Assembly (NCBI GenBank): GCA_937996625.1
Contig: CALKVA010000008.1
Coordinates: forward strand, 20,902-84,901
Reading direction: 5' to 3'
Source of the DNA: an uncultured Alphaproteobacteria bacterium
GTDB taxonomy: Bacteria > Pseudomonadota > Alphaproteobacteria > Puniceispirillales > Puniceispirillaceae
Length of the DNA: 64,000 nt
Below the pieces are notes generated by a model that searched no databases, was not told the DNA's origin, and saw only the letters and a program-made list of their open reading frames with translations. Below are positions 8,830-63,711 of this stretch, piece by piece. A program made the position numbers and the translations under genes. Within the stretch, counting starts at the first letter, position 1; every line of letters begins with the position of its first letter.

Positions 8830-8936
8830 CCGCCCCTATTAAAAACCCTAAACAGGGTTGGCTCACTAAACTACCTGTTTTAAAAAAAATTCCCTGCATC
8901 TTGCTTTTTTTGCGTTCAGGTTCATGTTTAATTATT

Positions 8937-9536
8937 ATGAGCTTTGTTACTTATTTTTCCGCAGTTAAAACGTTGATGCCCCAAATACTAGTAGGACTTT
9001 GTTTTTCCGCTGTATTTTTATTCGCCCTTAATACTGCAAATGCTGACCAAAGAGATCCTGAGTTAGACATTTTATTCTCAAAGCTTAAATCTGCTGAAAC
9101 AATCGAAGACGCAGAACAGATTTCGGGCAGAATTTGGCAAATATGGGCCACCCATAATGCGAGTTCAATATTAAGTAGACAAATGCAGATGGGCATTGAT
9201 TTAATGCAATCTGGCCAGCTAGATGCCGCCAATGCAGTGTTTAGTTATGTAATCCAGCAAGATAATGAATTTGCTGAGGCGTGGAATAAACGCGCCACTG
9301 TTTTATTCTTCATGGGTGAGTTTGAAAGAGCAAAATATGACATCGCCCAGACACTTGCATTAGAGCGTAATCATTTTGGCGCGCTTGCTGGCCTTGGTAT
9401 GGTGGAAGTGCACCTTGGCAATCCCAAAGCAGCCCTTGAAGCCTATCGTCGTGCCGCATCTATAAACCCGCACCTACAAGACGTTCAACAAGCAATTTCT
9501 AGATTAGAAGAGAAGCTCAAAGGGCTTCCTGCCTAA
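8937..9536 (+). CDS. secreted or membrane-anchored TPR-repeat protein
   Basis: Hydrophobic signal-like N-terminus from the Met at 8937 (MSFVTYFSAVKTLMPQILVGLCFSAVFLFAL). TPR-like repeats (AEAWNKRATVLFFMGEFERAKYD...). The longer ORF from 8817 overlaps the rhodanese gene. Confidence 0.65.
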   Translation: MSFVTYFSAVKTLMPQILVGLCFSAVFLFALNTANADQRDPELDILFSKLKSAETIEDAEQISGRIWQIWATHNASSILSRQMQMGIDLMQSGQLDAANAVFSYVIQQDNEFAEAWNKRATVLFFMGEFERAKYDIAQTLALERNHFGALAGLGMVEVHLGNPKAALEAYRRAASINPHLQDVQQAISRLEEKLKGLPA

Positions 9537-9553
9537 TACCCTTATTTTTCAAC

Positions 9554-10981: not shown

Positions 10982-11083
10982 GCGAAAATGATCTCTTCAC
11001 AAATAAATTTACGGGATTTTTGGGCACTCTAAGATAAAGAATTTTTTTAAGCAAATAATAACAAAAAATAAAGATGCTAATTG

Positions 11084-12421
11084 TTAGGCTTTGGTACTAA
11101 TCCTTTCAGGAATTAAACCCCGGGGGGAAAACCGAAGAAACAGCAATAAAACCAATCCCATTATCAGCAATCTTAATTGCGGCGCGGTGCTAACAAAATG
11201 TTCCTTTAAGGCTGAGCCCTCAGATAACGGCAAAGTGATAATATACACTAACATATTACCAATTGTTTCAGCTTCAATCCAAAAGAACCACACAATAAAG
11301 CCACCAAGAATTGCACCAAAGTTATTCCCAGAGCCGCCGACAATAACCATTACCCAGATTAAAAACGTAAATCGAAGCGGATGGTATATAGATGGATTAA
11401 ACTGGCCATCTAATGTAACCAGCATAGCCCCCGCAATTCCTACAATGGCAGAACCAATAACAAAGATTTGCAGGTGACGTGAGGTAACGTTTTTGCCCAT
11501 CGCACTCGCTGCTATCTCATTATCACGGATAGCGCGCATCATCCTGCCCCATGGCGAATTTAATGCTCTCTCACATAGCCATAAAAGCATAAGCAACACC
11601 CCTAAAAACAGGGACGTATAACATAATTTAACAAACAAACTTGATGCTTGCATAACATTCATTCCAACAGAATCTGTTATATCTTGAAACCAAATTGTTG
11701 ATTGCAGTTCAATTTCATAGGGAACGGGCCGCGGTATGCCTGTTACATTCTTAACACCCCTTGTTAACCAATCCTCGTTTTTAAACATGAAAATAACAAT
11801 TTCTGAAATACCGAGCGTAGCAATAGCAAGATAGTCGGAGCGCAAGCCAAGGGTGATTTTTCCAATAATAAATGCAACACAACCGGCCAATATTCCGCCA
11901 ACACCCCATGACAGCAAAATAGGCAATCCTGCACCACCTAGATACCCAGAAGAAGCTGGCTCAAACGATTCAATTCTAAGAATTGCGGGATCTAGCACAA
12001 ATCGGGAGAGTATGTAGCCTGCAACAGCGATAATGATTACGTACCAGTATCGCCGTCTGCCTGTGCCCTTAAATCTTCGCCATACAAGGTACGCTAAAAT
12101 ACCGCTCATTATCCAGATAATTACCCCGAGCAACACCCCAAATCCGCCTGCCTGCCAAGCGCCCATAATAGGCGCTTTTGAAACCAGCATTGCAGCCAAA
12201 CCGCCAAGCGCGGCAAACCCCATAATTCCAGCGTTAAACAGGCCTGCATATCCCCATTGTAAATTTACACCAAGCGCCATAATTGCTGAAATCAAACATA
12301 AATTCAGGATTGCGAGCATCAAATTCCAGCTTTGGAAAACCCCGACAAGCGTCAATGCGCCTAGCATAAGCGGGAATAGTAAAACTGCTTTTCTGCTAGA
12401 ACTAGGAATTGATAACTTCAT
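11084..12421 (-). CDS. livM: branched-chain amino acid ABC transporter permease (LivM type)
   Basis: 445-aa polytopic protein. ATGA overlap with the upstream LivH-type gene. Sits in a 5-gene liv-like operon. Confidence 0.8.
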   Translation of the reverse strand: MKLSIPSSSRKAVLLFPLMLGALTLVGVFQSWNLMLAILNLCLISAIMALGVNLQWGYAGLFNAGIMGFAALGGLAAMLVSKAPIMGAWQAGGFGVLLGVIIWIMSGILAYLVWRRFKGTGRRRYWYVIIIAVAGYILSRFVLDPAILRIESFEPASSGYLGGAGLPILLSWGVGGILAGCVAFIIGKITLGLRSDYLAIATLGISEIVIFMFKNEDWLTRGVKNVTGIPRPVPYEIELQSTIWFQDITDSVGMNVMQASSLFVKLCYTSLFLGVLLMLLWLCERALNSPWGRMMRAIRDNEIAASAMGKNVTSRHLQIFVIGSAIVGIAGAMLVTLDGQFNPSIYHPLRFTFLIWVMVIVGGSGNNFGAILGGFIVWFFWIEAETIGNMLVYIITLPLSEGSALKEHFVSTAPQLRLLIMGLVLLLFLRFSPRGLIPERISTKA

Positions 12422-13431
12422 AATGTCTTCCCACGAAATAATCCAGTAGGCCGAACCAGCAATACAATGACAAGTAGAACAAACGAGACAGCAAATTTAT
12501 ATTCAGTAGATAACATTTGAACAAGGCTTTCTGGCGCCCATTCTTCTGGCAAAAGGTAGGTAAAAAAACGTTTATATGCAAACGTTATGAATGCCTCTGA
12601 AAAGGCTATTACATATCCTCCAATTACGGCCCCTATAGGATTGCCAACACCGCCAACAATGGCCGCTGCAAATATCGGTAATACCAGTTGCAAATATACA
12701 AATGGTTTATAGCCTTTATCAAGCCCATATAATGTCCCTGCAACCGCTGCTAATGCGCCTACCAGCATCCAAGTAATAATAATGACACGTTCCGGCTTTA
12801 TCCCCGACAAAAGAGCAAGATCCTCATTGTCAGAAAATGCGCGCATTGATTTGCCTGTCCTGGTTTTATTCAGAAACCAGAAAACAGCAGTAACCAGCAC
12901 GAGTGTGACAATAACGGTAATGGCCTGAGTTGTGCGGATTGACACCCCCTCTGCCAATCCAGTTATTTGCTTAAACTCAGATGCCTTGATAATAAATCGC
13001 TCCCCATCAGCAAAATTCTTTTTAGACGTTCCAATGAAAAACCGAATAAAACCAGCTAAAAAGAACATTACACCAACAGACACAATCATAAAAGTAACAG
13101 GTTGAACACGCTGAGCCTGATAATATCTAAACACCGTTCCGTCTAAAATTAGCAATAACATAATGGTTATAATAATGGAGAAAGGAAGTGCTAACAAAGC
13201 TGTCGGTAGAGGATGGATTGAAATCCCTACCGACTGAAAGAGCCAAATGGTAAAAATGGATATCATCGTGCCAAAAGACATCATCTCGCCATGTGCAAAA
13301 TTTGAAAACCGCAGCACAGCATATATTAACGTAATTCCAAGTGCGCCAAGTGCAAGCTGACTTCCATAAGCAAGAGAGGGAACAATAATATAATTTGCCA
13401 AAAGCGTTATCGCATTTAAAATATCTATCAT
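12418..13431 (-). CDS. livH: branched-chain amino acid ABC transporter permease (LivH type)
   Basis: 337-aa polytopic protein with a C-terminal GGVGNPIGAVIGG motif typical of LivH. Confidence 0.8.
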   Translation of the reverse strand: MIDILNAITLLANYIIVPSLAYGSQLALGALGITLIYAVLRFSNFAHGEMMSFGTMISIFTIWLFQSVGISIHPLPTALLALPFSIIITIMLLLILDGTVFRYYQAQRVQPVTFMIVSVGVMFFLAGFIRFFIGTSKKNFADGERFIIKASEFKQITGLAEGVSIRTTQAITVIVTLVLVTAVFWFLNKTRTGKSMRAFSDNEDLALLSGIKPERVIIITWMLVGALAAVAGTLYGLDKGYKPFVYLQLVLPIFAAAIVGGVGNPIGAVIGGYVIAFSEAFITFAYKRFFTYLLPEEWAPESLVQMLSTEYKFAVSFVLLVIVLLVRPTGLFRGKTL

Positions 13432-30203: not shown

Positions 30204-31097
30204 TTGATGAAAAAATCTGCAGGCATTGTGGGGCTTGGTGTACTTGGCTCTGCAATAGCACAATATCTACTCGAGAAGGATTACGAAATATACGGGTATG
30301 ATATAGCCCCAAATGCACTTAATGAGCTAGAAAAATTTGAAAACTTTAAAACATGCAGCTCACCTGCTAATGTATTGTCACATCAACAAATAACTCTTTT
30401 ATGTTTGCCATCTGCTGCAAGCCTAGAAATAGTTGTGAAGGATTTATCCAAAAATTCATTACCGCATTCTAAACAACCCCTTTTAATAGAATTATCTACT
30501 CTACCAGTGGACTCAAAAATCGCTGCGTTAAAGATCGCACAAGATAATAATATTAGAATGGTAGATTCACCAGTATCAGGAAATCGGATTGTCGCTTTAA
30601 ATGGAAAATTATCCGCCTATTTGTCTGGTATTAGGCAAGATACTGAAATTGCCAAACCTTTATTAGATGCTTTTTGTCAGAAGGTTACTGAAGTTGGCGA
30701 TTTTGGGAATGGAAGCAAAATGAAGCTTATTGGCAACATTTTAAATCTTGTTCATAACAGTGTGACCGCTGAAGTTATGGTTCTTGGGATGAAAGTGGGG
30801 TTAGAGCCAGAATTAATTCATAAAGCAATTAGCGGCACATTTTCAAGCTCAGCAGTATTTGAAGGGCGCGGAAAATTAATGGTTGATAATAATTATGCCG
30901 TGGAAGGGATGAACTTTTCTACGCCTATAAAAGATAGTGATTTTATTACCAAATTAGCTAAAGATCATTTTGTGCCACTGCCTTTATACCAGGTCGCCTT
31001 ACAATATTATTTAGCTGCAATGGCGCAGGGATACGAGGACCTAGACGCAGCTGCGGTTTGCGCAGTAGTTGAGAAGAATACAAATTTGAACCGCTAG
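30204..31097 (+). CDS. NAD(P)-dependent oxidoreductase, HIBADH family
   Basis: 297 aa. GIVGLGVLGSAIA Rossmann, GNGSKMKLIGN signature. Confidence 0.8.
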   Translation: MMKKSAGIVGLGVLGSAIAQYLLEKDYEIYGYDIAPNALNELEKFENFKTCSSPANVLSHQQITLLCLPSAASLEIVVKDLSKNSLPHSKQPLLIELSTLPVDSKIAALKIAQDNNIRMVDSPVSGNRIVALNGKLSAYLSGIRQDTEIAKPLLDAFCQKVTEVGDFGNGSKMKLIGNILNLVHNSVTAEVMVLGMKVGLEPELIHKAISGTFSSSAVFEGRGKLMVDNNYAVEGMNFSTPIKDSDFITKLAKDHFVPLPLYQVALQYYLAAMAQGYEDLDAAAVCAVVEKNTNLNR

Positions 31098-31979: not shown

Positions 31980-32858
31980 TCACTTCTGCAATAATTCTTT
32001 TAATTGTGGGTAGATAAGCATAAAATCTTCATGCTCATATGTTGGGTCAAGCATATCAAGTAGCCGCAAGCTATGGCTAAGAAAGGTTTGTTCCCCATTA
32101 GTTTGCAACAACTTTTCTAATAGCCCCAAATCTTTTTTAAGGTTGGAGGGTGTTGATTTACCATCAAATGTTCCTGATAAAATATGGTCTGGAAAACGCC
32201 TTTCTGAAATATAGCTTCGTGCGTTAGAGCAATTAAACACATCAATCATTTGACCTAAATCAAGGCCTTGCTTCTCGCCCTTGATACAAATTTCACTTAA
32301 CAGCAAAAAATTTCCGTGGCAAACAGCATTATGGAAAAGCTTCATTAACTGACCTTTACCTGCTCCCCCGATGTGAAAAATCTTATTTGAAAAAGAATTT
32401 AATATAGGCGTATTTTTTTCTAAAATATCAGCATCACCGCCAACCATCAATGTTAGCGTTCCAGCGGCTGCTCCCTTAGCTCCACCGGACATAGCTGCGT
32501 CTAACTGATTTACCCCAATTTCTTGCAGCAATTTTTCTGCTCGATTTTCTGTCACACGAGGGTCAGAACTTGTAAGGTCAACTATTGTTGCACCATGTTT
32601 TGGCGAGTCCAATGATAAAATGTTCCCTATCTGAATAGAGGATTGCACACACATTAAAACCAAATCACATTCTGTAACTATTTTGGTTGCTGAAGATTTT
32701 TTAATTAAAGGGTTTTTGGCTGTTAATTCTAATTTATAAGTATCAGTATCATAAACAAGTGATGATAAACCCGCCCTTGAAATACTTGCCGCGATGCCAC
32801 TACCCATTGCACCAAGACCAATTAGTCCAATATTAGGTTGAGTCATCATAAGCACCAC
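31980..32858 (-). CDS. NAD(P)-dependent oxidoreductase, HIBADH family
   Basis: 292 aa. IGLIGLGAMGSGIA Rossmann, GKGQLMKLFHN signature. Last enzyme gene of the long minus-strand ABC/CoA cluster. Confidence 0.8.
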   Translation of the reverse strand: MVLMMTQPNIGLIGLGAMGSGIAASISRAGLSSLVYDTDTYKLELTAKNPLIKKSSATKIVTECDLVLMCVQSSIQIGNILSLDSPKHGATIVDLTSSDPRVTENRAEKLLQEIGVNQLDAAMSGGAKGAAAGTLTLMVGGDADILEKNTPILNSFSNKIFHIGGAGKGQLMKLFHNAVCHGNFLLLSEICIKGEKQGLDLGQMIDVFNCSNARSYISERRFPDHILSGTFDGKSTPSNLKKDLGLLEKLLQTNGEQTFLSHSLRLLDMLDPTYEHEDFMLIYPQLKELLQK

Positions 32859-42432: not shown

Positions 42433-43170
42433 TTATGAATTGAAAATCAATGCAATACCAAGAGAAAATAATATTGTGTATGTAATGTACCTAAAATAGG
42501 CTTCAGACACTTTATCAAACAAAAAAATACCTGCCCTTAACCCGACTGATAGAGGGATAGAAAGCACGAGCCCAATTACAAGGAATTTAGAGTCAAAACC
42601 TTGCACAAAAATGAAATAAGCAAAAAACGATAATATCGTGCATATTATAACGAGCTGTATATTACTTTGAATGATATTTTTTTCAACTGGAGACGAAAAA
42701 AAATAAATTCCGGTAAAAGGGCCTGTAGGAACACCAAAAAAGCCCGAGAACAGGCCTGTTACCCACCCGAATCCAAGAGATATAAGTCTTGTTTGAGGCC
42801 CATTGTATCGCCAGCCGGAGAAGAGAATTAATGTCCCGACAATTATAAAAATTCCCATGTAAAAAGTAATTTGTGATATTTCATTCTTGAAAAGAAAATT
42901 TAAACCCATAAAGGCGCCAACGCAAAGCCCTGCGCTATAAAAAAGAGTTATTTTTTTTTGTGAATATTTCACAGCTCTTCTCACAGTAAACATAACACCC
43001 ACCAAACCCGACAAGATAATAATATTCATTCCAGCAATAGGGCCAAGAAGAAGAGTGTAACAAGGCAACATAAATAATGAACCTGCAAAACCAGTAAACC
43101 CTCTTACAATCCCTCCAAGAAAAGCTATTAAAACACATAAAAAGAGCGTGGATAATTCTATATCAAACAA
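42433..43170 (-). CDS. TauE/SafE-family permease
   Basis: 245-aa polytopic protein with family-typical G-rich helices (FLGGIVRGFTGFAGS ... GFFGVPTGPF). Confidence 0.7.
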   Translation of the reverse strand: MFDIELSTLFLCVLIAFLGGIVRGFTGFAGSLFMLPCYTLLLGPIAGMNIIILSGLVGVMFTVRRAVKYSQKKITLFYSAGLCVGAFMGLNFLFKNEISQITFYMGIFIIVGTLILFSGWRYNGPQTRLISLGFGWVTGLFSGFFGVPTGPFTGIYFFSSPVEKNIIQSNIQLVIICTILSFFAYFIFVQGFDSKFLVIGLVLSIPLSVGLRAGIFLFDKVSEAYFRYITYTILFSLGIALIFNS

Positions 43171-43376
43171 TTAATAAGTTCCTTTATTATTCAGCTCTAG
43201 GAAGAGCAGCTTGCGGTCATTGCCTTTGCTTGTATCGTTTGAGACAGTTTATTAACAGTTGTTTTTTATATTAGAAGTGGCTTAACATTTTATCATAAAA
43301 ATCAATCAATTCTAAATGTATCAAATATTCATTCTACCAAAATATATCAATTAAATTATGAGTTTAGGGGAGAGAA

Positions 43377-44348
43377 ATGACAGGAAAGCAAATCACGAGA
43401 GACGATTTAAGAGTAGCCGCCGAAAAGTATAAGAATTGGGGGAAATGGGGGCCTGATGATGAAATAGGTACCTTAAACTATACCTCGGCGAACGATATTG
43501 TTGAAGCGGCACAGCTTGTCAATCAAGGAAAAGTAATCTCTCTTGCCCTCAATTTTGATTCAAACGGCCCACAAGGTGCAAAATCTAAATATCAATCGCT
43601 TGGCAGAATAAACCCACTTCATACGATGCTACGAACAGGAACTGATGCCTATTCCGGCGTTCTTGACCAGCGGGGGATTCGCGCCGCAGACGATATGATT
43701 GTTATGCCGTTGCAGTCGGGAACCCAGTGGGACGGCCTTGGACATATATTTTATGAGAATTTCATGTGGAATGGCTATGATTGCAGAGAAGTAACCTCTG
43801 CTGGAGCGCAGAAATGTGGCATTGAAAAAACAAAGAGTAAAATGGTCGGACGCGGCGTTTTATTAGATGTACCAAAAGAAATGGGTGTTGAGCGGCTAGA
43901 GGATGGTTACGGGATTACATGCGATGATCTGGACAGGGCCGCAAAATCCCAGCAGGTTGAAATTAAGCGCGGGGATTATGTAATTGTTCGCACTGGCCAA
44001 ATGGAAGAAATGCTTAAAAATGGAAATTGGGATGGCTATCCTGGAGGCGATGCGCCTGGGTTTGCTTTTGAGACGCTAGAATGGCTACAAGAAAAAGAAA
44101 TAGCAGCCATTGCCTCAGACACTTGGGGTTGTGAAGTACGCCCCAACGAATCCGTGGAAGGCATAAATCAGCCATGGCATTGGATTACAATCCCAATTAT
44201 GGGCATTACGATGGGAGAAATATTTTCTCTTGGCGAATTAGCAGCTGATTGCGCTTCAGACGGAATTTATGAATTTATGTTTGTTGCGCCAGCCTTACCC
44301 ATTACAGGCGCTGTTGGCTCGCCTACCAACCCACTTGCTATAAAATAA
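43377..44348 (+). CDS. cyclase-family protein (kynurenine formamidase / isatin hydrolase fold), long variant
   Basis: 323 aa. NWGKWGPDDEIGTLNY N-terminus and QSGTQWDGLGH in place of the family HxGTHxDxPxH motif. SD GGGGAG before the ATG. Confidence 0.7.
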   Translation: MTGKQITRDDLRVAAEKYKNWGKWGPDDEIGTLNYTSANDIVEAAQLVNQGKVISLALNFDSNGPQGAKSKYQSLGRINPLHTMLRTGTDAYSGVLDQRGIRAADDMIVMPLQSGTQWDGLGHIFYENFMWNGYDCREVTSAGAQKCGIEKTKSKMVGRGVLLDVPKEMGVERLEDGYGITCDDLDRAAKSQQVEIKRGDYVIVRTGQMEEMLKNGNWDGYPGGDAPGFAFETLEWLQEKEIAAIASDTWGCEVRPNESVEGINQPWHWITIPIMGITMGEIFSLGELAADCASDGIYEFMFVAPALPITGAVGSPTNPLAIK

Positions 44349-44490
44349 TTATTAGTTGGGATAGGAGCTACGCTTTTTCTAGAATAATTGGACATATTTT
44401 TTGAACTAACGGAGCGTTTAGCCCCTAAACTAATTATTACAACCCATGCATTGTTGAAGACGCCTTTTTAATAAGAATGGAATCACATAA

Positions 44491-46167
44491 ATGAATAAAC
44501 AAACTGGTGCAGTTATATTAGCAGAATTATTAAAAGCTTATGGGATTACCCATATTTTTATGGTTCCGGCCGTCTTAAGAAGAACAATGGTGGAAATAGA
44601 GAAAAGGACAAATATCAAAAGACTTCACGTTCATTCAGAAAAATCAGCTGCTTATATGGCAGATGGTTTTGCGCGGGCATCTGGAAAGCCTGCTATTTGC
44701 ATGGCACAGGTAATTGGTGCTTTGAATATAGCAGCAGGGTTGCGAGATGCATTTCTGGCGCATTCTCCTGTAATCGCTCTTACAGGTGGCAGAGATCCGA
44801 AAACAAAATTCAAGAAGGTCTATCAAGAAATAGATGATATGCCTGCATTTGAGCCTGTCACAAAATTCAATGCAACGATTGATGATGTTAGCCGGATTCC
44901 TGATATGGTTGAACAGGCGTTTCGGGTTTCAACCTCTGGCTCACCAGGTCCCGTGCATTTGCAATTCAAAGGCAATGAAGCACAAATAGATTTAGAGGAA
45001 TTTGAATTTGAAAGTAATTTCAAGATATCAGACACACACATTCCACCGCATCGCCCGATTTGCAATGATACATTATTAAATGAAGCCCTAACCACCATTC
45101 AATTAGCACAGAGGCCAATTATTGTTGCTGGCGGCGGTGCAAAACATTCCAAATCTTCCCTAGAATTAATCGAATTTGCGGAAAAGCTGAATATACCAAT
45201 TGCAACTTCTCTGAATGGAAAAGATATAATTCATTCAACCCATCCTCTTTCGTGTGGTGTGGTTGGCACTTACTCACGCGAATCAGCTAATCTCTCTGTA
45301 AAAGCTGCTGACCTTGTGATATTTATTGGGTCTGAAACAAGCTCTATGACAACACATTTCTGGACAGTGCCAGATGATAAAACACGGGTTATTCAGATAG
45401 ATATCGAACCTGAAAATCTAGGCAGAAACTATCTTCTTGAAGTTGCAATACAAGGCGATGCAAAAGCAATCCTTGAGAGGATGAATGCGCTCGCATCTGC
45501 ACTTATCATTAGCGAGCGCACTGACTGGCTTGAGCATGTCCACGAGCTAAGACGTGATTGGTATCACAAATATAAATCCCTAATGGAAAGTGATGCCAAT
45601 CCAATAAGGCCAGAGCGATTATGCAAGGAAATTAGCGATAACGCTCCAGACAACGCTGTGATTGTTGTGGATACAGGCCATGCTGGTATGTGGATGGGCG
45701 GTATGTTTGATCTGCAGCATCCAAACCAAAATTACATTCGAAGCGCTGGCCATCTTGGCTGGGCGTTTCCAGCATCACTTGGGGCAAAATGTGCGCTGCC
45801 AGATAGAACAGTGATTTGCTTTACTGGAGATGCTGGATTTTGGTACCATATTGCTGAAATCGAAGTGGCCGTAAGATGGAACATTAATGTAATTGTGATT
45901 GTAAATAATAACAGTGGTGGCAACCAGTCAAAACGTGGTTTTGATAAAGCCTATGGCGGAGAGCAAACTGCCGAAGGTCGTCAGATGTGGACTTTCAATA
46001 ATATAAATTTTGCAGAAATCGCTCAGAATATAGGGGCTGTTGGTATTAGAGTAGAAAAAGCAGAAGATATAAAAACTGCGATTAAAAAAGCATTACAAAT
46101 GAACAAACCAGTAATTATTGATGTTGTGACTGACATCGATGCGTTAGCACCGCTAGCCGTTAACTAG
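44491..46167 (+). CDS. thiamine-diphosphate-dependent enzyme (acetolactate synthase / cyclohexanedione hydrolase-like family)
   Basis: 558 aa with three-domain ThDP architecture. ThDP-binding motif GDAGFWYHIAEIEVAVRWNINVIVIVNNNSGGN. Confidence 0.85.
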   Translation: MNKQTGAVILAELLKAYGITHIFMVPAVLRRTMVEIEKRTNIKRLHVHSEKSAAYMADGFARASGKPAICMAQVIGALNIAAGLRDAFLAHSPVIALTGGRDPKTKFKKVYQEIDDMPAFEPVTKFNATIDDVSRIPDMVEQAFRVSTSGSPGPVHLQFKGNEAQIDLEEFEFESNFKISDTHIPPHRPICNDTLLNEALTTIQLAQRPIIVAGGGAKHSKSSLELIEFAEKLNIPIATSLNGKDIIHSTHPLSCGVVGTYSRESANLSVKAADLVIFIGSETSSMTTHFWTVPDDKTRVIQIDIEPENLGRNYLLEVAIQGDAKAILERMNALASALIISERTDWLEHVHELRRDWYHKYKSLMESDANPIRPERLCKEISDNAPDNAVIVVDTGHAGMWMGGMFDLQHPNQNYIRSAGHLGWAFPASLGAKCALPDRTVICFTGDAGFWYHIAEIEVAVRWNINVIVIVNNNSGGNQSKRGFDKAYGGEQTAEGRQMWTFNNINFAEIAQNIGAVGIRVEKAEDIKTAIKKALQMNKPVIIDVVTDIDALAPLAVN

Positions 46168-46210
46168 CATAACCCAAACAAACTTATCACCGAACAAACA
46201 GGAGAGATTT

Positions 46211-47392
46211 TTGAAATATCCCAGCATAGATAAAGATAATTATCCACTTGGTTTTTTATTCATAAAAGGGGGAGAGCAACCTGATATCGTTCAAGGCAAA
46301 ACCGGAACAACAACCTATACAACTCATGCAAGGCAAATGGCCTTATTTCAAAAAGAAGCCCTTGTTCAAGAAGGCGAAAAAGGAAACAGATGGCGGCTAT
46401 CGTCAGATGAAGGAAAACACCTATCTGGAACCGACCTTGCCCCTTTTCCGCTTGGTTTCTTTAATGCAGCGCTTCACGGTGAATTAACAGGGCGTATTCG
46501 CCAATTTGCCAAACGTGATAACATAATTATCGACAAAATAGACATGGAAGTTTCTAATTTTTACTATATGACTGGCTCATTTGTGAAGGGAGATGCTGCA
46601 GGTCATGCAGAACCGCCCCTAATTGAAATATCTATCACCGCTGATACAAGCGCTGAAAAAATTAACACGATTATATCAGATGCTCTAACCGCTTCTCCTT
46701 TCATAGATGGGTATCGCAACGAGCTTCATAGCCGATTTTCCTTATTCATAAATGGCACCCAAAAAACATTATCAAACTTGCCAAATTGTCCAATAGATGC
46801 CGCTGCAGATCCCTTCATGATCTACCAGACAACACCTGCACCTGTTAGTAATGCTAAATTTATGGATGATATAATCAGAAAAACAGGCGAAGAATTAGAG
46901 GGGGAAATAACAAAAGCACCCACAGGAACAACAACAAAAATTATCCGTAACATCTATGGGGAAAGCCATAGCACTGGTGATGCAAGCACGGTCATTGCTG
47001 ATACCGTCCTTGGGCTTCCGGGGATGACCCGTTTTGAGATTGGCAGTGATGAGGGGGGTAACTCTGCTCCTTCTGGCTTAAGCCATATGTGTGCAGGCGT
47101 GTCGTTCTGCTTTTTAACGCAGTTACACCGATATATTGAACATCAGAAATTCTCTATCAGTGGAATGCGCCTTACCCAAACTGTAGATTTCGAGGTAAGC
47201 GAAGAAAACGGCGCTCAAATTGGCAAGATGGCTGCTGTTGATACGCATCTTTATATGAATGGAGATGCCTCTGAAGAGGAGTATGAGCGCTTGTTAGAAT
47301 TATCAGCAAGATCGTGTTATTTGCACGCAACCCTTGCCAAACCGCTTGAACCTAAAGTGGAGATAAGCCTGAATGGTAACGCCATTTCTTAG
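46211..47392 (+). CDS. tandem (duplicated) OsmC/Ohr-like domain protein
   Basis: 393 aa. TTG start with AGGAGAG 4 nt upstream. Two OsmC-like cores (RWRLSSDEGKHLSGTDLAPFPLGFFNAAL... and FEIGSDEGGNSAPSGLSHMCAGVSFCFLTQL...ARSCYLHATL). Confidence 0.6.
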   Translation: MKYPSIDKDNYPLGFLFIKGGEQPDIVQGKTGTTTYTTHARQMALFQKEALVQEGEKGNRWRLSSDEGKHLSGTDLAPFPLGFFNAALHGELTGRIRQFAKRDNIIIDKIDMEVSNFYYMTGSFVKGDAAGHAEPPLIEISITADTSAEKINTIISDALTASPFIDGYRNELHSRFSLFINGTQKTLSNLPNCPIDAAADPFMIYQTTPAPVSNAKFMDDIIRKTGEELEGEITKAPTGTTTKIIRNIYGESHSTGDASTVIADTVLGLPGMTRFEIGSDEGGNSAPSGLSHMCAGVSFCFLTQLHRYIEHQKFSISGMRLTQTVDFEVSEENGAQIGKMAAVDTHLYMNGDASEEEYERLLELSARSCYLHATLAKPLEPKVEISLNGNAIS

Positions 47393-47424
47393 ACTAAATA
47401 GAAATCAAGATTAGGGAGTTCAGA

Positions 47425-48648
47425 ATGAAGTCATTGAGAACCAAACGAGACGAGCAACAATGGATGCTCGACCTTGCGCTTAATATGCGTGGTAGAGTTC
47501 AGAATTTTGAGAGAGATGATTGGGAAACACCAAAGCGCGCTCATAATTATCGGATGCTTCCCAAAATGTGGCGCCAAAAAGCAGAGCATGACGAAGCACT
47601 GGCAAAACAGGCTGAAAAACAAGGGTTTCTGATGACGGCATTAGAACATTACGAACATGCGGTTGAATCCTACAGAATGGCGCAGCACCCTATATATTTT
47701 GACGATAATCCAGTGAAAATATATCTCACTCAAAAACTAGCAGAGATGGTTGATAGAAGAAGTGCTATTTCGCCCTACCCCATAGAGCGAGTTGAAGTAC
47801 CGTTCGATGGTGGCAAAACCATATCCTGTCTTTTGCACCTGCTCCCAGATAGACGCAAAGCACCATGCGTCCTTTATGTTCCAGGAATGGATCAGACAAA
47901 AGAATATTTCCCAAAGGTTATGAATAATCTTGGCATAAATAGGGGTATGCACGTTATTTCAATGGATGGCCCTGGACAGGGCAATTCAAACATGCAGAAA
48001 ATTCGTGCTGTTGGGGATAATTATGAACGTGCAGGGGCTGCTGTTATCTCATACCTTCAAACCAGAGAAGAAATAGATAGCGATCGTATCGGCATATATG
48101 GTGTTAGCATGGGCAGTTATTGGTCACTTCGTCTTGCAAGTTATGATCACCGTGCCGCCGCCATCGCTAGCGGTGTTGCATGTTTCAATCCTAATAACAC
48201 CATTTTTTCTGTATCCTCACCGCGCTTCAAGCAGATGTTTATGTATATGGCTGGATTAGATGATGAAGATGAATTTGATAAGATGTCATCTGAAATGACG
48301 GTAAAAGGATATTCTGAAAAAATCTCCTGCCCAACATTACTGGCTACTGGTGAATTTGACCCGCTATGCCCCTTGGAGGATGCAGTTGAGGTTTTTGAAG
48401 ACCTGAAATGTAGCAAAGAAATGTGGGTTATTGAAGATCAGTTTCATCCCTTATGGGGAATCCCCAATCTAGGCAAACTTGATTGTCATCACTATATTAT
48501 GGATTGGCTGCAACGTGTCTTATTTTCAGAAAATCCAGCAGATGGGGTAGCTGATGGGCGTATTGCCTATGTTGCTAATGGGGGTGATGGGCCATTTGGT
48601 GATTGCGAATGGGAGCCTCCTATTGGAGCAGATGACGCCTATTTCTAA
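47425..48648 (+). CDS. alpha/beta hydrolase with N-terminal helical domain (DUF1100 / 2,6-dihydroxypseudooxynicotine-hydrolase-like)
   Basis: 407 aa. Nucleophile elbow GVSMGSYW, later GEFDPLCP (Asp) and DQFHPLWG (His). Confidence 0.7.
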   Translation: MKSLRTKRDEQQWMLDLALNMRGRVQNFERDDWETPKRAHNYRMLPKMWRQKAEHDEALAKQAEKQGFLMTALEHYEHAVESYRMAQHPIYFDDNPVKIYLTQKLAEMVDRRSAISPYPIERVEVPFDGGKTISCLLHLLPDRRKAPCVLYVPGMDQTKEYFPKVMNNLGINRGMHVISMDGPGQGNSNMQKIRAVGDNYERAGAAVISYLQTREEIDSDRIGIYGVSMGSYWSLRLASYDHRAAAIASGVACFNPNNTIFSVSSPRFKQMFMYMAGLDDEDEFDKMSSEMTVKGYSEKISCPTLLATGEFDPLCPLEDAVEVFEDLKCSKEMWVIEDQFHPLWGIPNLGKLDCHHYIMDWLQRVLFSENPADGVADGRIAYVANGGDGPFGDCEWEPPIGADDAYF

Positions 48649-48745
48649 TATAAGCTTAACTATTAAAAAAAGGCAGCTTGCATTCGCCCAAACTGCCTTT
48701 TTCCCAAACTGCGTTTTTATAGTTTCATTTGAAACCGAAAATTAA

Positions 48746-58154: not shown

Positions 58155-58958
58155 ATGGGGGAAAATATGGCCGCGTCTGCTAAAAAGGCAGAAGACCTTT
58201 CACAATTTGGTCAAACTGTTATAGAAGGAAAAAATGTAACAAAAATCTTCGGAGAAACTGTTACAGCACTCGAAGGAGCTAATTTTGATATCCAAGCTGG
58301 TGAATTTATTTCACTCGTTGGACCTAGCGGTTGTGGTAAATCGACATTATTGCGCCTTGTGGCAGGATTAATTGAAAAAACTTCTGGTGATGTTAAAGTT
58401 AACGATGATTTAGTGACCAAACCACGAACTGATATTGGTATGATGTTTCAGAAAGCGGTGCTACTTGATTGGCGTACAGCGATAGAAAATGTTCTATTGC
58501 CATCTGAAATGAAACACCGAATTACTCAAGAAGACAAAGATAAAGCGATGGCCTCCCTTGAGCTTGTTGGATTGAAGGGATTCGAATTTCATTTTCCAAA
58601 GCAATTATCAGGCGGAATGCAGCAACGTGTAGCACTCGCAAGGCTTATTCAAACAGGCGCTGATATTATGCTAATGGATGAACCTTTTGGTGCTCTTGAT
58701 GAATTCACAAGAGAGCGCTTGAACGTTGAGTTAATGCGTATTGTCGGTGAACTAAAAGCAACAACATTGTTTGTGACACACAATATTCAAGAAGCAATTT
58801 ACCTTGCGGACAGAGTGATGGTTATGACACCACGCCCTGGAAAAATAGCAGAGATTATCGAAGTCAAGTTCGAACGTCCAAGAGATATATCTATTCAGAC
58901 CAGTCGTGAATTTAATATAATCATAGAGCAGGTGAGAGACACGTTGGGGAGTCATTGA
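58155..58958 (+). CDS. ABC transporter ATP-binding protein, NitT/TauT (nitrate/sulfonate/bicarbonate) family
   Basis: Walker A GPSGCGKST, signature LSGGMQQR, Walker B LMDEPFGALD. The in-frame ATG at 58167 has a GGGGGA SD and is the likelier start. Confidence 0.88.
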   Translation: MGENMAASAKKAEDLSQFGQTVIEGKNVTKIFGETVTALEGANFDIQAGEFISLVGPSGCGKSTLLRLVAGLIEKTSGDVKVNDDLVTKPRTDIGMMFQKAVLLDWRTAIENVLLPSEMKHRITQEDKDKAMASLELVGLKGFEFHFPKQLSGGMQQRVALARLIQTGADIMLMDEPFGALDEFTRERLNVELMRIVGELKATTLFVTHNIQEAIYLADRVMVMTPRPGKIAEIIEVKFERPRDISIQTSREFNIIIEQVRDTLGSH

Positions 58959-58962
58959 TTAG

Positions 58963-59820
58963 ATGTCCTATTCAACGAGCCAACAAACCAAAAATATTAG
59001 CTTATTTAAGACACTACCATTCCATTTGCTCATATTTGCTGCGCTTATTGTGATTTGGGAATTGACAAATCTCTACGGGTTTGAGGACCAAATTCAAGCG
59101 GATATGATTGCACCAAGACCAACTAACATTGTTCTTGCCATGCTTGATATTTTCATTGTCGATAAAACAGTTTGGAAACATCTGATATCTACTTTTCAAA
59201 AAGCTTTGTTAGGCGCAAGTATTGGTACTGCAATAGGTATGGGTTTAGCGATTGCAGCGACACTTAGCCTGACCTTCAGAAAATACATAAAGCCTTGGAT
59301 TATTTTAATGGAAGCAACACCTAGAATTGCTGTTGGTCCCATCTTTGTCGCTCTTTTAGGGTTCGGATTATGGTCAGCAGTTGCACTTGCTGCATTAGTT
59401 GCGTTCTTCGGCCCATTTGTAAATACGTTTCAAGGATTAATGGAAGTTGATGATGAAGCAGAAGAGATGTTTCGCTCTCTTGGAGCATCACGGTTTCAGA
59501 CATTCTGGAAGTTAAGATTTGCGTCCGCTATGGAACTAATATCAGCTGGTTGGAAACTTGCTACTGCTTCTGCATTTGGCGGCGCACTTGTTGCTGAATT
59601 TATTCAAGCAAGTGAGGGAATGGGCGTTCTAATTGCGCAATATGTGATCATGATTACCATGGATTACGCATTTGCAGGACTTTTATCCGTTACTATATTT
59701 GGATTTATATTATTTAAAATAATGGATTATTTCGACTACCGTCTGATTTTTTGGAAAAATGATTATCTTCTTTTAAAAGAAAGTGAAAAAAGACGCAAGA
59801 AAGCAGGGATTGTATCATGA
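58963..59820 (+). CDS. ABC transporter permease (NitT/TauT family), first of two
   Basis: 285-aa polytopic protein with a BPD_transp_1-type loop (FRSLGASRFQTFWKLRF). Confidence 0.85.
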   Translation: MSYSTSQQTKNISLFKTLPFHLLIFAALIVIWELTNLYGFEDQIQADMIAPRPTNIVLAMLDIFIVDKTVWKHLISTFQKALLGASIGTAIGMGLAIAATLSLTFRKYIKPWIILMEATPRIAVGPIFVALLGFGLWSAVALAALVAFFGPFVNTFQGLMEVDDEAEEMFRSLGASRFQTFWKLRFASAMELISAGWKLATASAFGGALVAEFIQASEGMGVLIAQYVIMITMDYAFAGLLSVTIFGFILFKIMDYFDYRLIFWKNDYLLLKESEKRRKKAGIVS

Positions 59821-60653
59821 AAACAGTAAGCTTTTTGGTATCGTTTTTAAAATATTCACTTAGTTTTATCCTAGTCCTTGGTTTATGGGAAGTGTACGCA
59901 AGATATGGAGGACTAAATGAGTTATTTTTGCCTCGCCCATCAAAAATTGGAGCTAAGCTATATAGCCTTTTCGTAAAGTTTGAAGTCATCGAGCAAGGCA
60001 CGATATATTGGCATTTTTTTGCAACGCTAGCACAAATGAGTATCGGATTTGTTTACGGAATAACGATTGGAACAACATTAGCGGTACTAGCAGCGTTTAA
60101 CGAAACATTTAGAAGATATGTTGCCCCTTATGCAGTTGTCTTTAATGTAACACCTGGTATTGCGGTTCTTCCATTAATTATTGCTTGGTTCGGTTTTGGC
60201 TGGGAATCCAAGATTGCTTTGGCAACATTGGTATGTTTCTTCCCACCATTTATTAATACATTAACTGGTTTGTTAAAGAAGAATGACGAAGCGATTGAGC
60301 TGTTTCAGACAATTGGTGCAACTCAGTCACAATATTTCTGGAAGCAACAACTTCCAAATGCATTACCCGAGGTTTTTGCTGGATTAAAACTTGCAATCAC
60401 GACAGCGTTACTTGGCACGATTGTAGCGCAGTTTGGATCAGCAACTGAAGGGGTAGGAATTCTAATGCAGCGATTTGCGTTTAGGCTAGATATGGCTGGC
60501 TCGTTCGCTTCATTAGTTACGATGGCTATCATGGGTCTATTAGTTTTCACCATTGCAGAAGTGATGGACAGACGTATCGTGTTTTGGCGTGATGCCAAAG
60601 GTCTAGAGCGGGTGTCCAAAAAGAAGCAACGTAAACTAATGGTCAATGGGTAG
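59817..60653 (+). CDS. ABC transporter permease (NitT/TauT family), second of two
   Basis: 278 aa, paralogous to the previous gene (FQTIGATQSQYFWKQQLP). ATGA overlap. Confidence 0.85.
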   Translation: MKTVSFLVSFLKYSLSFILVLGLWEVYARYGGLNELFLPRPSKIGAKLYSLFVKFEVIEQGTIYWHFFATLAQMSIGFVYGITIGTTLAVLAAFNETFRRYVAPYAVVFNVTPGIAVLPLIIAWFGFGWESKIALATLVCFFPPFINTLTGLLKKNDEAIELFQTIGATQSQYFWKQQLPNALPEVFAGLKLAITTALLGTIVAQFGSATEGVGILMQRFAFRLDMAGSFASLVTMAIMGLLVFTIAEVMDRRIVFWRDAKGLERVSKKKQRKLMVNG

Positions 60654-60690
60654 GCAAAAAAAGTGAAGACCTTAATGTGAGGTTTTTAAA

Positions 60691-61761
60691 ATGAGCGTAA
60701 GGGAGAAAAATATGCTTAAAAAAATATTAGCGACCGCGATAGCAGTTGCAGTGATATCGCCAATGTCAGCTATGGCTGGCGGACACCTGGATAAAATCAC
60801 AATTATCCAACCTTCTTATCCGTCAATGATTTTCTGGCCGTCACATATCAGTGCACAGCTAGGATTTTATGAGGAGCAAGGTATTGACCCAACATATCTT
60901 GATGGTGATACAACCGTTCCATATCAGGCTTTCCTATTAAATGGACAAGCTGACTTTGCAATGCTTGACGGCCCTCAGGTTTTCCAGGGTGCCGCTGCAG
61001 GTATGGGTTTAAAAACTGCCTATTCAGTTCATAGTTCAGCACCAGAGGGTGTTTATGTAAATGATGATAGCCCACTTCAAAGCGTAACTGAGCTAAAAGG
61101 TAAGACTGTTGGTCTTGCATCAGACCGTGACCTTGCTTCTCTAAAAGTTGCATTAGCTCATGCTGATTCAAATACTGATGGTATTAGCACAGTTGTTGTT
61201 GGTGACGCGGGTCCTACATTGGCAAACGTATTTCTAAAAGGAACAGCTGCTGCATTCGCAGGTTCAATTTCTGACTTGGCAGCACTTGCAACCAAAGGTG
61301 TTATTGTAAGAGATATCACACCTCCATCAGCAAAAGTTGCTCCTGCAAACACATATGCTGTTAACGGCGCAACAATGATGGATAACTATGACAAATATTG
61401 TCGTTTCCTAAAAGCATACTCAATGGGTGTGCACGTTGGTCATTACAACCTAGATATCATTGCAGCTATGTCAAAGGCACCTGATGGTTCGCCAGCACAG
61501 TGGGAAGTTGAATCAGTGGGTAATTCCTACTTAGCAGCTGTGGCAAAACTTCAGTTACCACCAGAAGGTGACACATTATATGGCTTGGTAGCTGAGTCTG
61601 CATGGCTTACAGTTAACAATGATATGAAGATGATCGGTGCAGTAGACGCAGATTATGATACAAATGATTATCTTACACACGTATTCGAAGGCTGTGCAAA
61701 CAACTTCGATCGTGCGGCAGTTGAAGCAGCTGCTGATGCATGGATGGCTAAAAACGGTTAA
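60691..61761 (+). CDS. periplasmic substrate-binding protein, NMT1/THI5-like (NitT/TauT family)
   Basis: Signal peptide MLKKILATAIAVAVISPMSAMA. The ATG at 60712 has an AGGGAG SD and is the likelier start. Confidence 0.75.
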   Translation: MSVREKNMLKKILATAIAVAVISPMSAMAGGHLDKITIIQPSYPSMIFWPSHISAQLGFYEEQGIDPTYLDGDTTVPYQAFLLNGQADFAMLDGPQVFQGAAAGMGLKTAYSVHSSAPEGVYVNDDSPLQSVTELKGKTVGLASDRDLASLKVALAHADSNTDGISTVVVGDAGPTLANVFLKGTAAAFAGSISDLAALATKGVIVRDITPPSAKVAPANTYAVNGATMMDNYDKYCRFLKAYSMGVHVGHYNLDIIAAMSKAPDGSPAQWEVESVGNSYLAAVAKLQLPPEGDTLYGLVAESAWLTVNNDMKMIGAVDADYDTNDYLTHVFEGCANNFDRAAVEAAADAWMAKNG

Positions 61762-62847: not shown

Positions 62848-63711
62848 ATGGGCGTGGGAATTATCGGACTTGGCGCAATGGGCGGAGCATATGCTCGAAA
62901 CTTATTGGCAGGGGGCATTTCGGTATCTGGTTTTGACCCAGATCCAGCTGCACAAGAAATGTTAAGTAAGGCAGGCGGCACGCCTCAGACCAGCTATGGT
63001 GACTGGCTTGGTGAGTGTGAGCTAGTAATCTTATCCCTAGCAAATATAAAAATTCTTGCAGATGCGACTCAAAAACTGAGTGGCATTTTAAAACCAGGAC
63101 AAGTTGTTTTGGAAACCGGAACTTTCACTCTCGAAACAAAACAGGCTGCAAAAAAGATGTTAGACAGCTGTGGCGCCATCCTACTGGATTGCCCTGTTAG
63201 CGGAACTGGCGCGCAAGCAGCGGTAGCTGATCTTGTGATGATGGCCAGTGGTTCAGAAGAGGCATTTACCAGAATAAAACCGCTATTAGAGCATTTTACA
63301 AAGTCAGTCCTTTATGCCGGACCTTTCGGAAATGGCTCTAAACTAAAATTTGTGGCAAATCATGCTGTGTACGTTCATAATTGCGCTGCAGCAGAAAGCC
63401 TTAATTACGGAATAACTCTTGGTTTAGACCCCAAAATGATATTTGAATTACTATCTAATGGAGCTGGTCAGTCAAAAATGTCTGATTTGCGTATGCCATT
63501 AATGATAGACCATGCCTATGAACCAGCTACAGCAAATATGACAATTGCTTATAAAGATATATCGGTCATCAGTGAGGATATTAAAAGCAACAATTGTTCA
63601 ACTCCACTTTTTGATGTTACCCAGAAATTATATGATGTAGCGAAAAAGGGCGTGCCTATTACATATGATACAGGTGCGGTTTATGAAGTTTATAAGCAAA
63701 AATTGGTTTAA
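62848..63711 (+). CDS. NAD(P)-dependent oxidoreductase, HIBADH family
   Basis: 287 aa. GIIGLGAMGGAYA Rossmann, GNGSKLKFVAN signature. Its stop overlaps the start of the next gene (TAATG). Confidence 0.85.
   Translation: MGVGIIGLGAMGGAYARNLLAGGISVSGFDPDPAAQEMLSKAGGTPQTSYGDWLGECELVILSLANIKILADATQKLSGILKPGQVVLETGTFTLETKQAAKKMLDSCGAILLDCPVSGTGAQAAVADLVMMASGSEEAFTRIKPLLEHFTKSVLYAGPFGNGSKLKFVANHAVYVHNCAAAESLNYGITLGLDPKMIFELLSNGAGQSKMSDLRMPLMIDHAYEPATANMTIAYKDISVISEDIKSNNCSTPLFDVTQKLYDVAKKGVPITYDTGAVYEVYKQKLV

Follow-up and report, generated by a model that had tools for sequence, protein, structure and literature searches.

The stretch analysed here (the window) comprises 64,000 nucleotides of contig CALKVA010000008.1 from the genome of a SAR116 alphaproteobacterium (2.0 Mb, 99.9% complete), and it contains a cluster of four co-directional genes that encode a cyclase-family protein, a thiamine diphosphate (ThDP) enzyme, a tandem OsmC protein and an alpha/beta hydrolase (genes 1 to 4). 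Comparison with related loci showed this cluster to be a genus-specific mosaic, in which a probably acquired cyclase-ThDP cassette was placed before a resident OsmC-hydrolase tail. We further propose that the four genes are probably transcribed as one unit and that their products act in the reaction scheme given below. To this combined statement, in which the evolutionary part carries most of the weight, we assign a probability of about 0.55. The four families are known, none of the four proteins is characterised, and the combination of the four genes is undescribed; in this last point we agree with an earlier interpretation made from the letters of the window (the sequence-only reading), which knew of no described pathway combining the four families.

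To compare the cluster with other genomes, 80 tandem-OsmC loci were fetched and scanned with 18 proteins of the window neighbourhood. For the cyclase, 86 loci were surveyed, of which 65 had room downstream and 83 lay outside the window's genus. Within the genus, the four genes were intact and ordered alike in seven further genomes or contigs, with 80-99% protein identity, and the whole region of ~20 kb around them was kept in order as well. The exception was the long-read, pilon-polished genome G006 (L021/L029), in which the ThDP match covered 63% of the query and the amidohydrolase-2 match 56%; these partial matches could be either frameshift errors or real pseudogenes. Among 60 relatives, the cyclase orthologue was detected in 7 of 10 genus genomes and in 0 of 27 genomes from 12 other genera of the family. 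In addition, genome G009, which belongs to the same genus and is 95% complete, had no orthologues of the tandem OsmC protein, the cyclase or the hydrolase, and therefore the cluster is accessory even within the genus. The notion of a unit conserved across genomes was not borne out, since the 80 tandem-OsmC loci, the 86 cyclase loci and the 60 relatives yielded the four-gene set in the window's genus only. The set is thus lineage-specific and does not qualify as a new conserved pathway. The "orphan operon" of the sequence-only reading was only partly right: the co-directional gene set is real, but it consists of two separately conserved pairs that were joined in one SAR116 genus. A lack of co-occurrence in other genomes had been named in that reading as a refuting condition, and by this measure the result largely speaks against it.

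The origin of the second pair was indicated by other SAR116 members. In 13 loci (L033, 6660-12401; L034; L042; L096; and nine others), the genes for a lactonase-like amidohydrolase-2 protein (Amido2b), a short-chain dehydrogenase/reductase (SDR), an IlvD/Edd dehydratase, the tandem OsmC protein and the hydrolase stood on one strand, with a TauE-VOC-MenB-CaiB-MR_MLE string divergent from them. The junctions within this five-gene operon were mostly 5-40 bp and were larger in L031 and L039. No cyclase, ThDP or two-subunit CoA-transferase gene was found in these 13 loci. By comparison with them, the three former leading genes (Amido2b-SDR-IlvD) of the window's genus now lie 3 kb downstream, under an operator with the palindrome TATCGATA, and the cyclase and ThDP genes have taken their place. 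The arrangement in the other SAR116 members resembles the non-phosphorylative sugar and sugar-acid operons, which combine a dehydrogenase, an amidohydrolase-2 lactonase and an IlvD/Edd or enolase-superfamily dehydratase; there the OsmC-hydrolase pair ends such an operon, whereas in the window's genus the pair is detached from it. To our knowledge, no described sugar-acid pathway includes an OsmC-fold protein or a hydrolase resembling 2,6-dihydroxypseudooxynicotine (DHPON) hydrolase.

A similar association was observed at a greater distance. Seven distant alphaproteobacterial loci (L035, L037, L046, L068, L070, L085 and L100; positions ~8800-12900) contained three adjacent genes, which encode an enolase-superfamily protein, a tandem OsmC protein and an IlvD/Edd dehydratase in this order. 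Near these trios we found SDR and amidohydrolase-2 genes, whose products were 60-69% identical to those of the window, and often a MenB-like crotonase gene (65-76%). One of the seven loci also carried sulfatase and alkyl-sulfatase genes. The remaining tandem-OsmC loci (~50) had none of these neighbours. The results indicated that outside the genus the conserved partners of the tandem OsmC gene are dehydratases of the IlvD/Edd and enolase-superfamily types, and that neither the cyclase nor the ThDP enzyme is among them. In a maximum-likelihood tree of the OsmC proteins, the genus and the other SAR116 members grouped together with 100/100 support and on long branches, which makes the OsmC-hydrolase pair the older of the two pairs at this type of locus. 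Replacement of the OsmC gene by horizontal transfer was considered as well and was rejected on the basis of this grouping. Between the genus and the other SAR116 members, the tandem OsmC proteins shared only 46-49% identity, whereas the adjacent hydrolases shared 83-85%.

The cyclase and ThDP genes were also found together elsewhere. A ThDP orthologue of 60-68% identity stood directly after the cyclase orthologue in Dongiaceae, Rhodospirillaceae and Burkholderiales records. Of the 65 informative loci, 25 (three from the window's genus) had the ThDP gene immediately downstream of the cyclase gene, and ~12 more had it within a few kb. The surroundings of the pair varied and included TetR regulators and TctC/Bug, TRAP or MFS carboxylate transporters; a TarD-like enolase-superfamily gene lay near the cyclase in 25 loci. 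Longest-ORF clustering of the high-GC metagenome loci was polluted by antisense open reading frames (ORFs), and only the enolase, MsrB and transporter clusters, rechecked by tblastn, were kept. Homologues of the cyclase were counted in thousands, and the best ones outside the genus were ~80% identical and came from records labelled Rhodospirillales, Dongiaceae, Xanthobacteraceae, Betaproteobacteria and Burkholderiales. Of 401 alphaproteobacterial genomes sampled evenly, 6 contained a cyclase relative of at least 58% identity, too few for co-occurrence statistics. The plasmid collection yielded only cyclase paralogues of 35-56% identity and no orthologues, and the neighbours of these paralogues were SDR and xanthine-dehydrogenase-type genes. 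Judged by gene order, the cyclase-ThDP pair is a conserved, patchily spread two-gene cassette. Because the window's family otherwise lacks this pair, horizontal acquisition by an ancestor of the genus was considered probable.

The assignment of gene 1 to the cyclase family was upheld by Pfam Cyclase PF04199, with 79.8 bits against a cut-off of 23.1. The closest structure by sequence, and the only one, was 5IBZ (MGS0169), which aligned over the whole length with an E value of 6e-61. In the cyclase motif, QSGTQWDGLGH at residues 113-123, both leading His residues are replaced by Gln and the Pro by Leu. The resulting Gln-x3-Gln-x-Asp-x3-His pattern (Q113, Q117, D119 and H123), together with R77, H268 and E281, aligned with Gln127, Gln131, Asp133, His137, Arg87, His286 and Glu299 of MGS0169. 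MGS0169 is a cyclase-like protein from a marine metagenome; Mn2+ stimulates its esterase activity on p-nitrophenyl (pNP) acetate, which is three orders of magnitude higher than its activity as an isatin hydrolase (PMC5341072). Mutagenesis established that these MGS0169 residues (Gln127, Gln131, Asp133, His137, Arg87, His286 and Glu299) are required, and the same paper gives this modified motif for the trans-dienelactone hydrolase of Pseudomonas reinekei MT1 (PMC5341072). All of the residues validated in this way are kept in the window cyclase and did not vary among its orthologues and paralogues; the Gln-Gln-Asp-His pattern was invariant in 86 orthologues and in the paralogues. Structures of formamidases or isatin hydrolases gave no sequence match to the cyclase at E <= 10. 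The sequence-only reading had regarded the family as metal-dependent amidases or hydrolases; the classical amidase assignment had to be given up, as the His-His metal motif found in formamidases and isatin hydrolases is missing from this protein, which belongs to a Gln-type esterase subfamily instead. Since the Gln-type motif is that of MGS0169 and trans-dienelactone hydrolase, hydrolysis of an ester or lactone is likelier than that of an amide, and the product of gene 1 is predicted to be a Mn2+-dependent carboxyl-ester or lactone hydrolase. The window cyclase and MGS0169 are alike in length (323 amino acids), in the modified motif and in the required Arg, His and Glu residues; they are relatives, not near-identical copies. 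No ThDP partner was reported for MGS0169 (PMC5341072), whereas a ThDP gene stands next to the window cyclase.

The product of gene 2 was confirmed as a ThDP enzyme, with Pfam TPP_enzyme_N, M and C all found. It contains the catalytic residue E50 and a cofactor motif, GDAG at 446-449 followed by NNN at 472-474, of the GDG-x(24-27)-NN type. All 54 NCBIfam hits, with named families such as the ALS large subunit, Gcl, Xsc and pyruvate oxidase, were under their cut-offs, the best being TIGR00118 with 346.1 against 538.35 bits. Its relatives in the PDB were about equally distant, with E values of about 1e-60 for BbmA, Gcl, ALS and HACL/OXC. The sequence-only reading had pointed to cyclohexane-1,2-dione hydrolase (Cdh); this likeness was not sustained, because the Cdh structures 2PGN and 4D5G gave E values of ~1e-43, poorer than those of ALS, Gcl and HACL (~1e-60). 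By its domains and motifs, the enzyme represents an uncharacterised subfamily of the acetolactate-synthase/glyoxylate-carboligase/pyruvate-oxidase superfamily. It shares the three domains, the catalytic Glu and the GDG...NN motif with ALS, Gcl, 2-hydroxyacyl-CoA lyase (HACL) and Cdh, and it differs from them in missing every curated cut-off. We know of no description of a cyclase-family hydrolase as a conserved partner of ALS, Gcl, HACL or Cdh. A pyruvate-oxidase-like chemistry of the ThDP enzyme was considered as well and set aside.

The OsmC assignment of gene 3 was also supported, by Pfam OsmC in the C-terminal half (52.3 vs 27.5) and by NF041052, "OsmC-related (seleno)protein", in two stretches (125.7 vs 95). 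The AlphaFold2 model (predicted local distance difference test, pLDDT, 89; predicted template modelling score, pTM, 0.91) comprised two OsmC-like halves, and its best Foldseek hits were the OsmC/Ohr structures 3CJE, 1LQL and 3EER. These results demonstrated that the tandem OsmC protein is a single-chain pseudo-dimer of OsmC/Ohr folds. The redox cysteines C300 and C369, which correspond to the peroxidatic and resolving residues of the family, are present in the C-terminal half only and were invariant in an alignment of 22 sequences. The N-terminal half has no equivalent cysteines and carries an invariant SDEGxH...PFPLGFFNA block. The TTG start of the gene matched the N-termini of 21 homologues. 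Compared with the OsmC/Ohr organic hydroperoxide reductases 3CJE, 1LQL and 3EER, the protein is alike in fold and in the positions of the FC...CY cysteines, but it has two folds per chain, cysteines in one half and a motif of its own in the other. Moreover, its gene sits in catabolic operons and not in stress regulons.

For gene 4, the hydrolase assignment agreed with Pfam FrsA-like PF06500 (37.4 vs 22), the family that includes the esterase FrsA, and with an S9 match. The suggested likeness to DHPON hydrolase was borne out as well, as the best solved relative was 2,6-dihydroxypseudooxynicotine hydrolase 2JBW (E 4e-19). It was followed by the Ayg1-like structure 8QD7 (E 2.5e-15); the polyketide-shortening C-C hydrolases Ayg1/Yg1 and AntI were among the next relatives. 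The nucleophile Ser228 (GVSMGS) aligned with the GxSxG serine of 2JBW, and Asp312 aligned with the Asp in a conserved block of that enzyme. His341, which sits just past the aligned region, would complete the triad. The hydrolase and 2JBW, which comes from Paenarthrobacter nicotinovorans, share the alpha/beta core, the N-terminal helical part, the GxSxG motif and the DGPGQG block. The match, a distant one, is limited to residues 84-337, and the C-C hydrolase activity is predicted; unlike the DHPON hydrolase system, the window hydrolase has no nicotine-pathway genes near it. Apart from the other SAR116 members, records from Hyphomicrobiaceae, Nitrospinota, Rokubacteria and Burkholderiales contained hydrolase relatives of 70-78% identity. 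Nearly all genus genomes carried a second hydrolase paralogue of 38-39% identity (G000:C11:12533-13684), as did G004, G008 and G009 among them, which lack the cluster.

The layout of the genes was then considered with respect to transcription. The ORF listing gave the same gaps between the four co-directional genes as those stated in the sequence-only reading (142, 43 and 32 bp), and the AT-rich character of the upstream region was reproduced with a GC content of about 0.33. Sigma-70-like matches in this upstream region were weak only. A consensus scan, in which loops of 3-8 nt were permitted, detected no terminator-like sites in the three internal gaps. The Shine-Dalgarno-type sequence AGGAGAG stands 7 nt before the TTG start of the tandem OsmC gene, and AGGGAG stands ahead of the hydrolase gene. 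Downstream of the hydrolase gene, direct folding detected a hairpin (Table 1) with a folding energy of -20.3 kcal/mol and a z score of -2.5, and 2 of 200 shuffles folded equally well. The consensus scan overlooked this hairpin, probably because its loop exceeds the allowed 3-8 nt. Judged by fold and position, the hairpin is likely a bidirectional terminator that ends the cluster. Collectively, these features suggested that the four genes probably form one transcription unit. The spacer between the cyclase and ThDP genes showed an indel of ~80 bp within the genus, with ~61 bp in G003 and G005 as opposed to 142-164 bp in other members. It had one weak promoter-like match at 44356-44385 and neither an Rfam match nor a terminator-like site, and an internal promoter in this variable-length spacer is possible.

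Several observations pointed to a link between the two pairs. In a Hyphomicrobiaceae genome of 6.05 Mb, one co-directional cluster combined hydrolase, cyclase and ThDP orthologues (76%, 81% and 61% identical, respectively) with RidA, a GFO/IDH/MocA dehydrogenase and a cupin. A myo-inositol-like ring cleavage, as the combination of GFO/IDH/MocA, ThDP and cupin proteins might suggest, was rejected since the ThDP enzyme is not of the IolD type by score. Genome G193 had a cyclase relative of 72% identity beside two hydrolase paralogues at one locus; at another (L203:8395-11463), three tandem Gln-type cyclase paralogues (62-63% identical to the g16 paralogue) occurred with an SDR, a hydrolase paralogue of 39% identity and a CaiB-type CoA-transferase. 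In 23 of the 83 loci outside the genus (L133, L140, L149, L153, L154, L170, L171 and 16 more), a gene for the methionine-R-sulfoxide reductase MsrB was located downstream of the ~80% cyclase orthologue on the same strand, often between it and the ThDP gene; it was the next gene in ~9 loci, and three read cyclase-MsrB-ThDP. For the MsrB gene, which normally stands alone, this placement is unusual. Contig C12 of the window genome (L194:2798-10525) carried, on the plus strand, genes for a single-domain OsmC protein, a peroxiredoxin-like protein, a cyclase paralogue of 55% identity and a glutathione S-transferase (GST). A three-subunit xanthine-dehydrogenase-type molybdenum (Mo) hydroxylase and a flavin monooxygenase, both encoded on the minus strand, flanked this cluster. 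In G042, from another family of the order, locus L192:5634-14394 encoded a luciferase-like monooxygenase, an alpha/beta hydrolase, a VOC protein, a cyclase paralogue of 62% identity, a flavin monooxygenase and an OsmC protein, and a Mo-hydroxylase adjoined it; this cluster is probably related to that on C12. The make-up of the C12 cluster is typical of N-heterocycle catabolism. Taken together, some functional coupling of the two pairs was considered likely. The literature offered nothing usable on BbmA/CsmA, on clusters of cyclase and ThDP genes, or on OsmC genes with enolase or IlvD neighbourhoods.

On the basis of these predictions, breakdown of a ring, lactone or heterocycle by the cluster is plausible, and we propose the following order of reactions, which taken alone we regard as doubtful. 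The Gln-type cyclase, dependent on Mn2+, would open an ester or an (enol-)lactone to yield a keto acid. The ThDP enzyme would then decarboxylate, cleave or ligate the 2-oxo or vicinal-dicarbonyl product. In a third step, the serine hydrolase would cleave a C-C bond of the beta-diketone type or an ester. The Cys300/Cys369 site of the tandem OsmC protein may act as a thiol-dependent reductase that removes a hydroperoxide or peracid side product; as an alternative, the protein may deal with an auto-oxidising intermediate.

Other results weigh against this proposal. Both the substrate and the sequence of reactions are purely inferential, and the cut-off of a curated equivalog was reached by none of the four proteins. 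The variable length of the first spacer and its weak promoter-like site mean that two transcripts are possible. The tandem OsmC gene of the Hyphomicrobiaceae genome lies 2.4 Mb from the hydrolase-cyclase-ThDP cluster, and in the cyclase loci surveyed no OsmC protein was encoded near the ~80% cyclase orthologues outside the genus. Few of the examined loci had the hydrolase gene close to the cyclase gene. The count of MsrB neighbours overstates the number of independent events because the metagenome loci are not phylogenetically independent. Finally, the tandem OsmC gene in the cluster could be a leftover of rearrangement.

Three other explanations were weighed against the mosaic cluster with its proposed scheme. 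First, the four genes might encode one dedicated pathway, in which the proteins act in sequence on a cyclic diketone, lactone or N-heterocycle and are expressed from one promoter. This would agree with the co-clustering of three of the four orthologues in Hyphomicrobiaceae, with the position of cyclase paralogues beside OsmC proteins, alpha/beta hydrolases, flavin monooxygenases and xanthine-dehydrogenase-type Mo-hydroxylases (a setting typical of N-heterocycle catabolism), with the role of the hydrolase's nearest solved relative in nicotine catabolism, and with the synteny of the four genes in all members of the genus that bear the cluster. However, the confinement of the set to one genus, the association of OsmC genes elsewhere with IlvD/Edd and enolase-superfamily dehydratases, the lack of a hydrolase or OsmC protein beside most cyclase-ThDP pairs and the lack of an oxygenase or Mo-hydroxylase in the cluster itself argue against it, and we consider it unlikely. 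Second, the juxtaposition might be accidental: a rearrangement would have stranded the OsmC and hydrolase genes behind an inserted cyclase-ThDP pair, so that genes of different pathways share a promoter. The separate conservation of the pairs, each with different partners, points in this direction; the fast divergence and long branches of the OsmC proteins relative to the hydrolases fit a changed or relaxed role, and the TATCGATA regulon, which controls the former operon partners, does not include the cluster. Nevertheless, all carriers retained the arrangement with intact ORFs, save the partial ThDP match in G006, the combination of hydrolase, cyclase and ThDP genes recurred independently, and thiol-redox partners recurred beside the cyclase family, which makes pure accident improbable to us. 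The third explanation, which overlaps with the other two, holds that the tandem OsmC protein has no catalytic role in the cluster and serves as an accessory or protective factor for IlvD/Edd dehydratases, whose Fe-S clusters are oxidant-sensitive; the OsmC gene directly adjoins IlvD/Edd in other SAR116 members and lies between enolase-superfamily and IlvD/Edd genes in the seven distant loci, and an IlvD/Edd gene is still found 6 kb downstream in the window, but ~50 of the 80 tandem-OsmC loci have no IlvD/Edd gene within 10 kb, and the genus gave up the adjacency with the OsmC gene still intact, so we give this explanation rather little credence.

The mosaic reading might also be extended beyond the genus, although we place low odds on this. 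A Gln-type cyclase, a ThDP enzyme and a recruited thiol-redox protein, often with a DHPON-like hydrolase, might form a widespread undescribed catabolic module. With similarly small probability, the thiol-redox partner of such a module might vary, being the tandem OsmC protein here, MsrB in many soil and freshwater lineages, and an OsmC, peroxiredoxin-like or GST protein beside the paralogues. In that case a peroxide, peracid or sulfoxide in need of reduction would arise from the ThDP step or from a dicarbonyl or enediol intermediate that auto-oxidises, and the redox partner would be a mechanistic component of the pathway, not a bystander. In the crystal of MGS0169, an acetyl-phosphate-like ligand was trapped (PMC5341072). 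This ligand could be a hint that the ThDP enzyme yields an acyl phosphate or an activated acyl product.

The cluster stands within an island of catabolic and transport genes that occupies ~26-64 kb of the window, roughly 35 kb (Table 1). The palindrome TATCGATA occurred in five copies in the window (42406, 49942, 51799, 58117 and 62761), against 0.79 expected. These copies precede the VOC-MenB-CaiB-MR_MLE string, the divergent pair of amidohydrolase-2 and CoA-transferase genes, the Amido2b-SDR-IlvD operon and two more operons. The statement of the sequence-only reading that the cluster lacks this operator was correct, with 0 copies at 43171-43376 and all five elsewhere. The palindrome was also absent from the TauE-Amido2b intergenic region, the equivalent promoter position, in the other SAR116 loci checked. 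The sites resemble a regulon specific to the genus, with members around the four-gene cluster but not the cluster itself. An Rfam scan of the whole window detected zero riboswitches or other RNAs. Genes for HIBADH-type reductases, TauE permeases and a NitT/TauT ABC system with an NMT1-like binding protein were noted at 30204-31097, 31980-32858, 42433-43170, 58155-61761 and 62848-63711, and this content hints at the handling of organosulfonates or hydroxy acids. Catabolism of sulfoquinovose or organosulfonates was set aside, as no aldolase, sulfolactaldehyde dehydrogenase or Xsc equivalog was found in the island despite three TauE permeases.

Table 1. Features of the four-gene cluster and of the surrounding island in the window
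Feature	Position	Strand	Remarks
Cyclase-family gene (gene 1)	43377-44348	+	323 amino acids, ATG start
ThDP enzyme gene (gene 2)	44491-46167	+	558 amino acids, ATG start
Tandem OsmC gene (gene 3)	46211-47392	+	393 amino acids, TTG start
Alpha/beta hydrolase gene (gene 4)	47425-48648	+	407 amino acids, ATG start
AT-rich intergenic region	43171-43376		Between divergent TauE gene and cluster; presumed promoter
Cyclase-ThDP spacer	44349-44490	+	142 bp
A-run/GC stem/U-run hairpin	48667-48702		Between convergent hydrolase and amidohydrolase-2 genes; from folding
Opp-type ABC importer		-	Upstream of cluster; island member
MLE-type enolase-superfamily enzyme (MR_MLE)		-	Upstream of cluster; island member
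Family III CoA-transferase (CaiB)		-	Upstream of cluster; island member
MenB/BadI-like crotonase		-	Upstream of cluster; island member
Methylmalonyl-CoA-epimerase-like VOC protein		-	Upstream of cluster; island member
TauE permease	42433-43170	-	Divergent from cluster
Amidohydrolase-2 gene			Directly downstream of cluster; convergent with hydrolase gene
Two-subunit CoA-transferase			Downstream of cluster
Amidohydrolase-2 (Amido2b), SDR and IlvD/Edd dehydratase			Downstream, ~3 kb beyond cluster, behind two-subunit CoA-transferase
EamA and acyl-CoA ligase			Downstream of cluster
NitT/TauT-type ABC system, FAH-family hydrolase and several HIBADH-type reductases			Downstream of cluster

The results have consequences for annotation and for enzyme discovery. 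Genes of the Gln type that are annotated as "cyclase family" or "kynurenine formamidase" would be better named esterase-like or lactonase-like, as the metal ligands of formamidases are missing. Two enzyme-discovery targets emerged from the comparison, namely the pair of a cyclase-like esterase and a ThDP enzyme, which is strongly conserved across proteobacterial classes, and the single-chain tandem OsmC protein within dehydratase operons of the sugar-acid type. The recurring thiol-redox partner next to the cyclase family is of wider interest; if this partnership is mechanistic, a peroxidase-fold protein would here form part of a catabolic route, which would be unusual. SAR116 bacteria, whose genomes are small, are abundant members of the surface-ocean community, and an unassigned catabolic island of ~35 kb therefore marks a real gap in what is understood of their use of dissolved organic matter.

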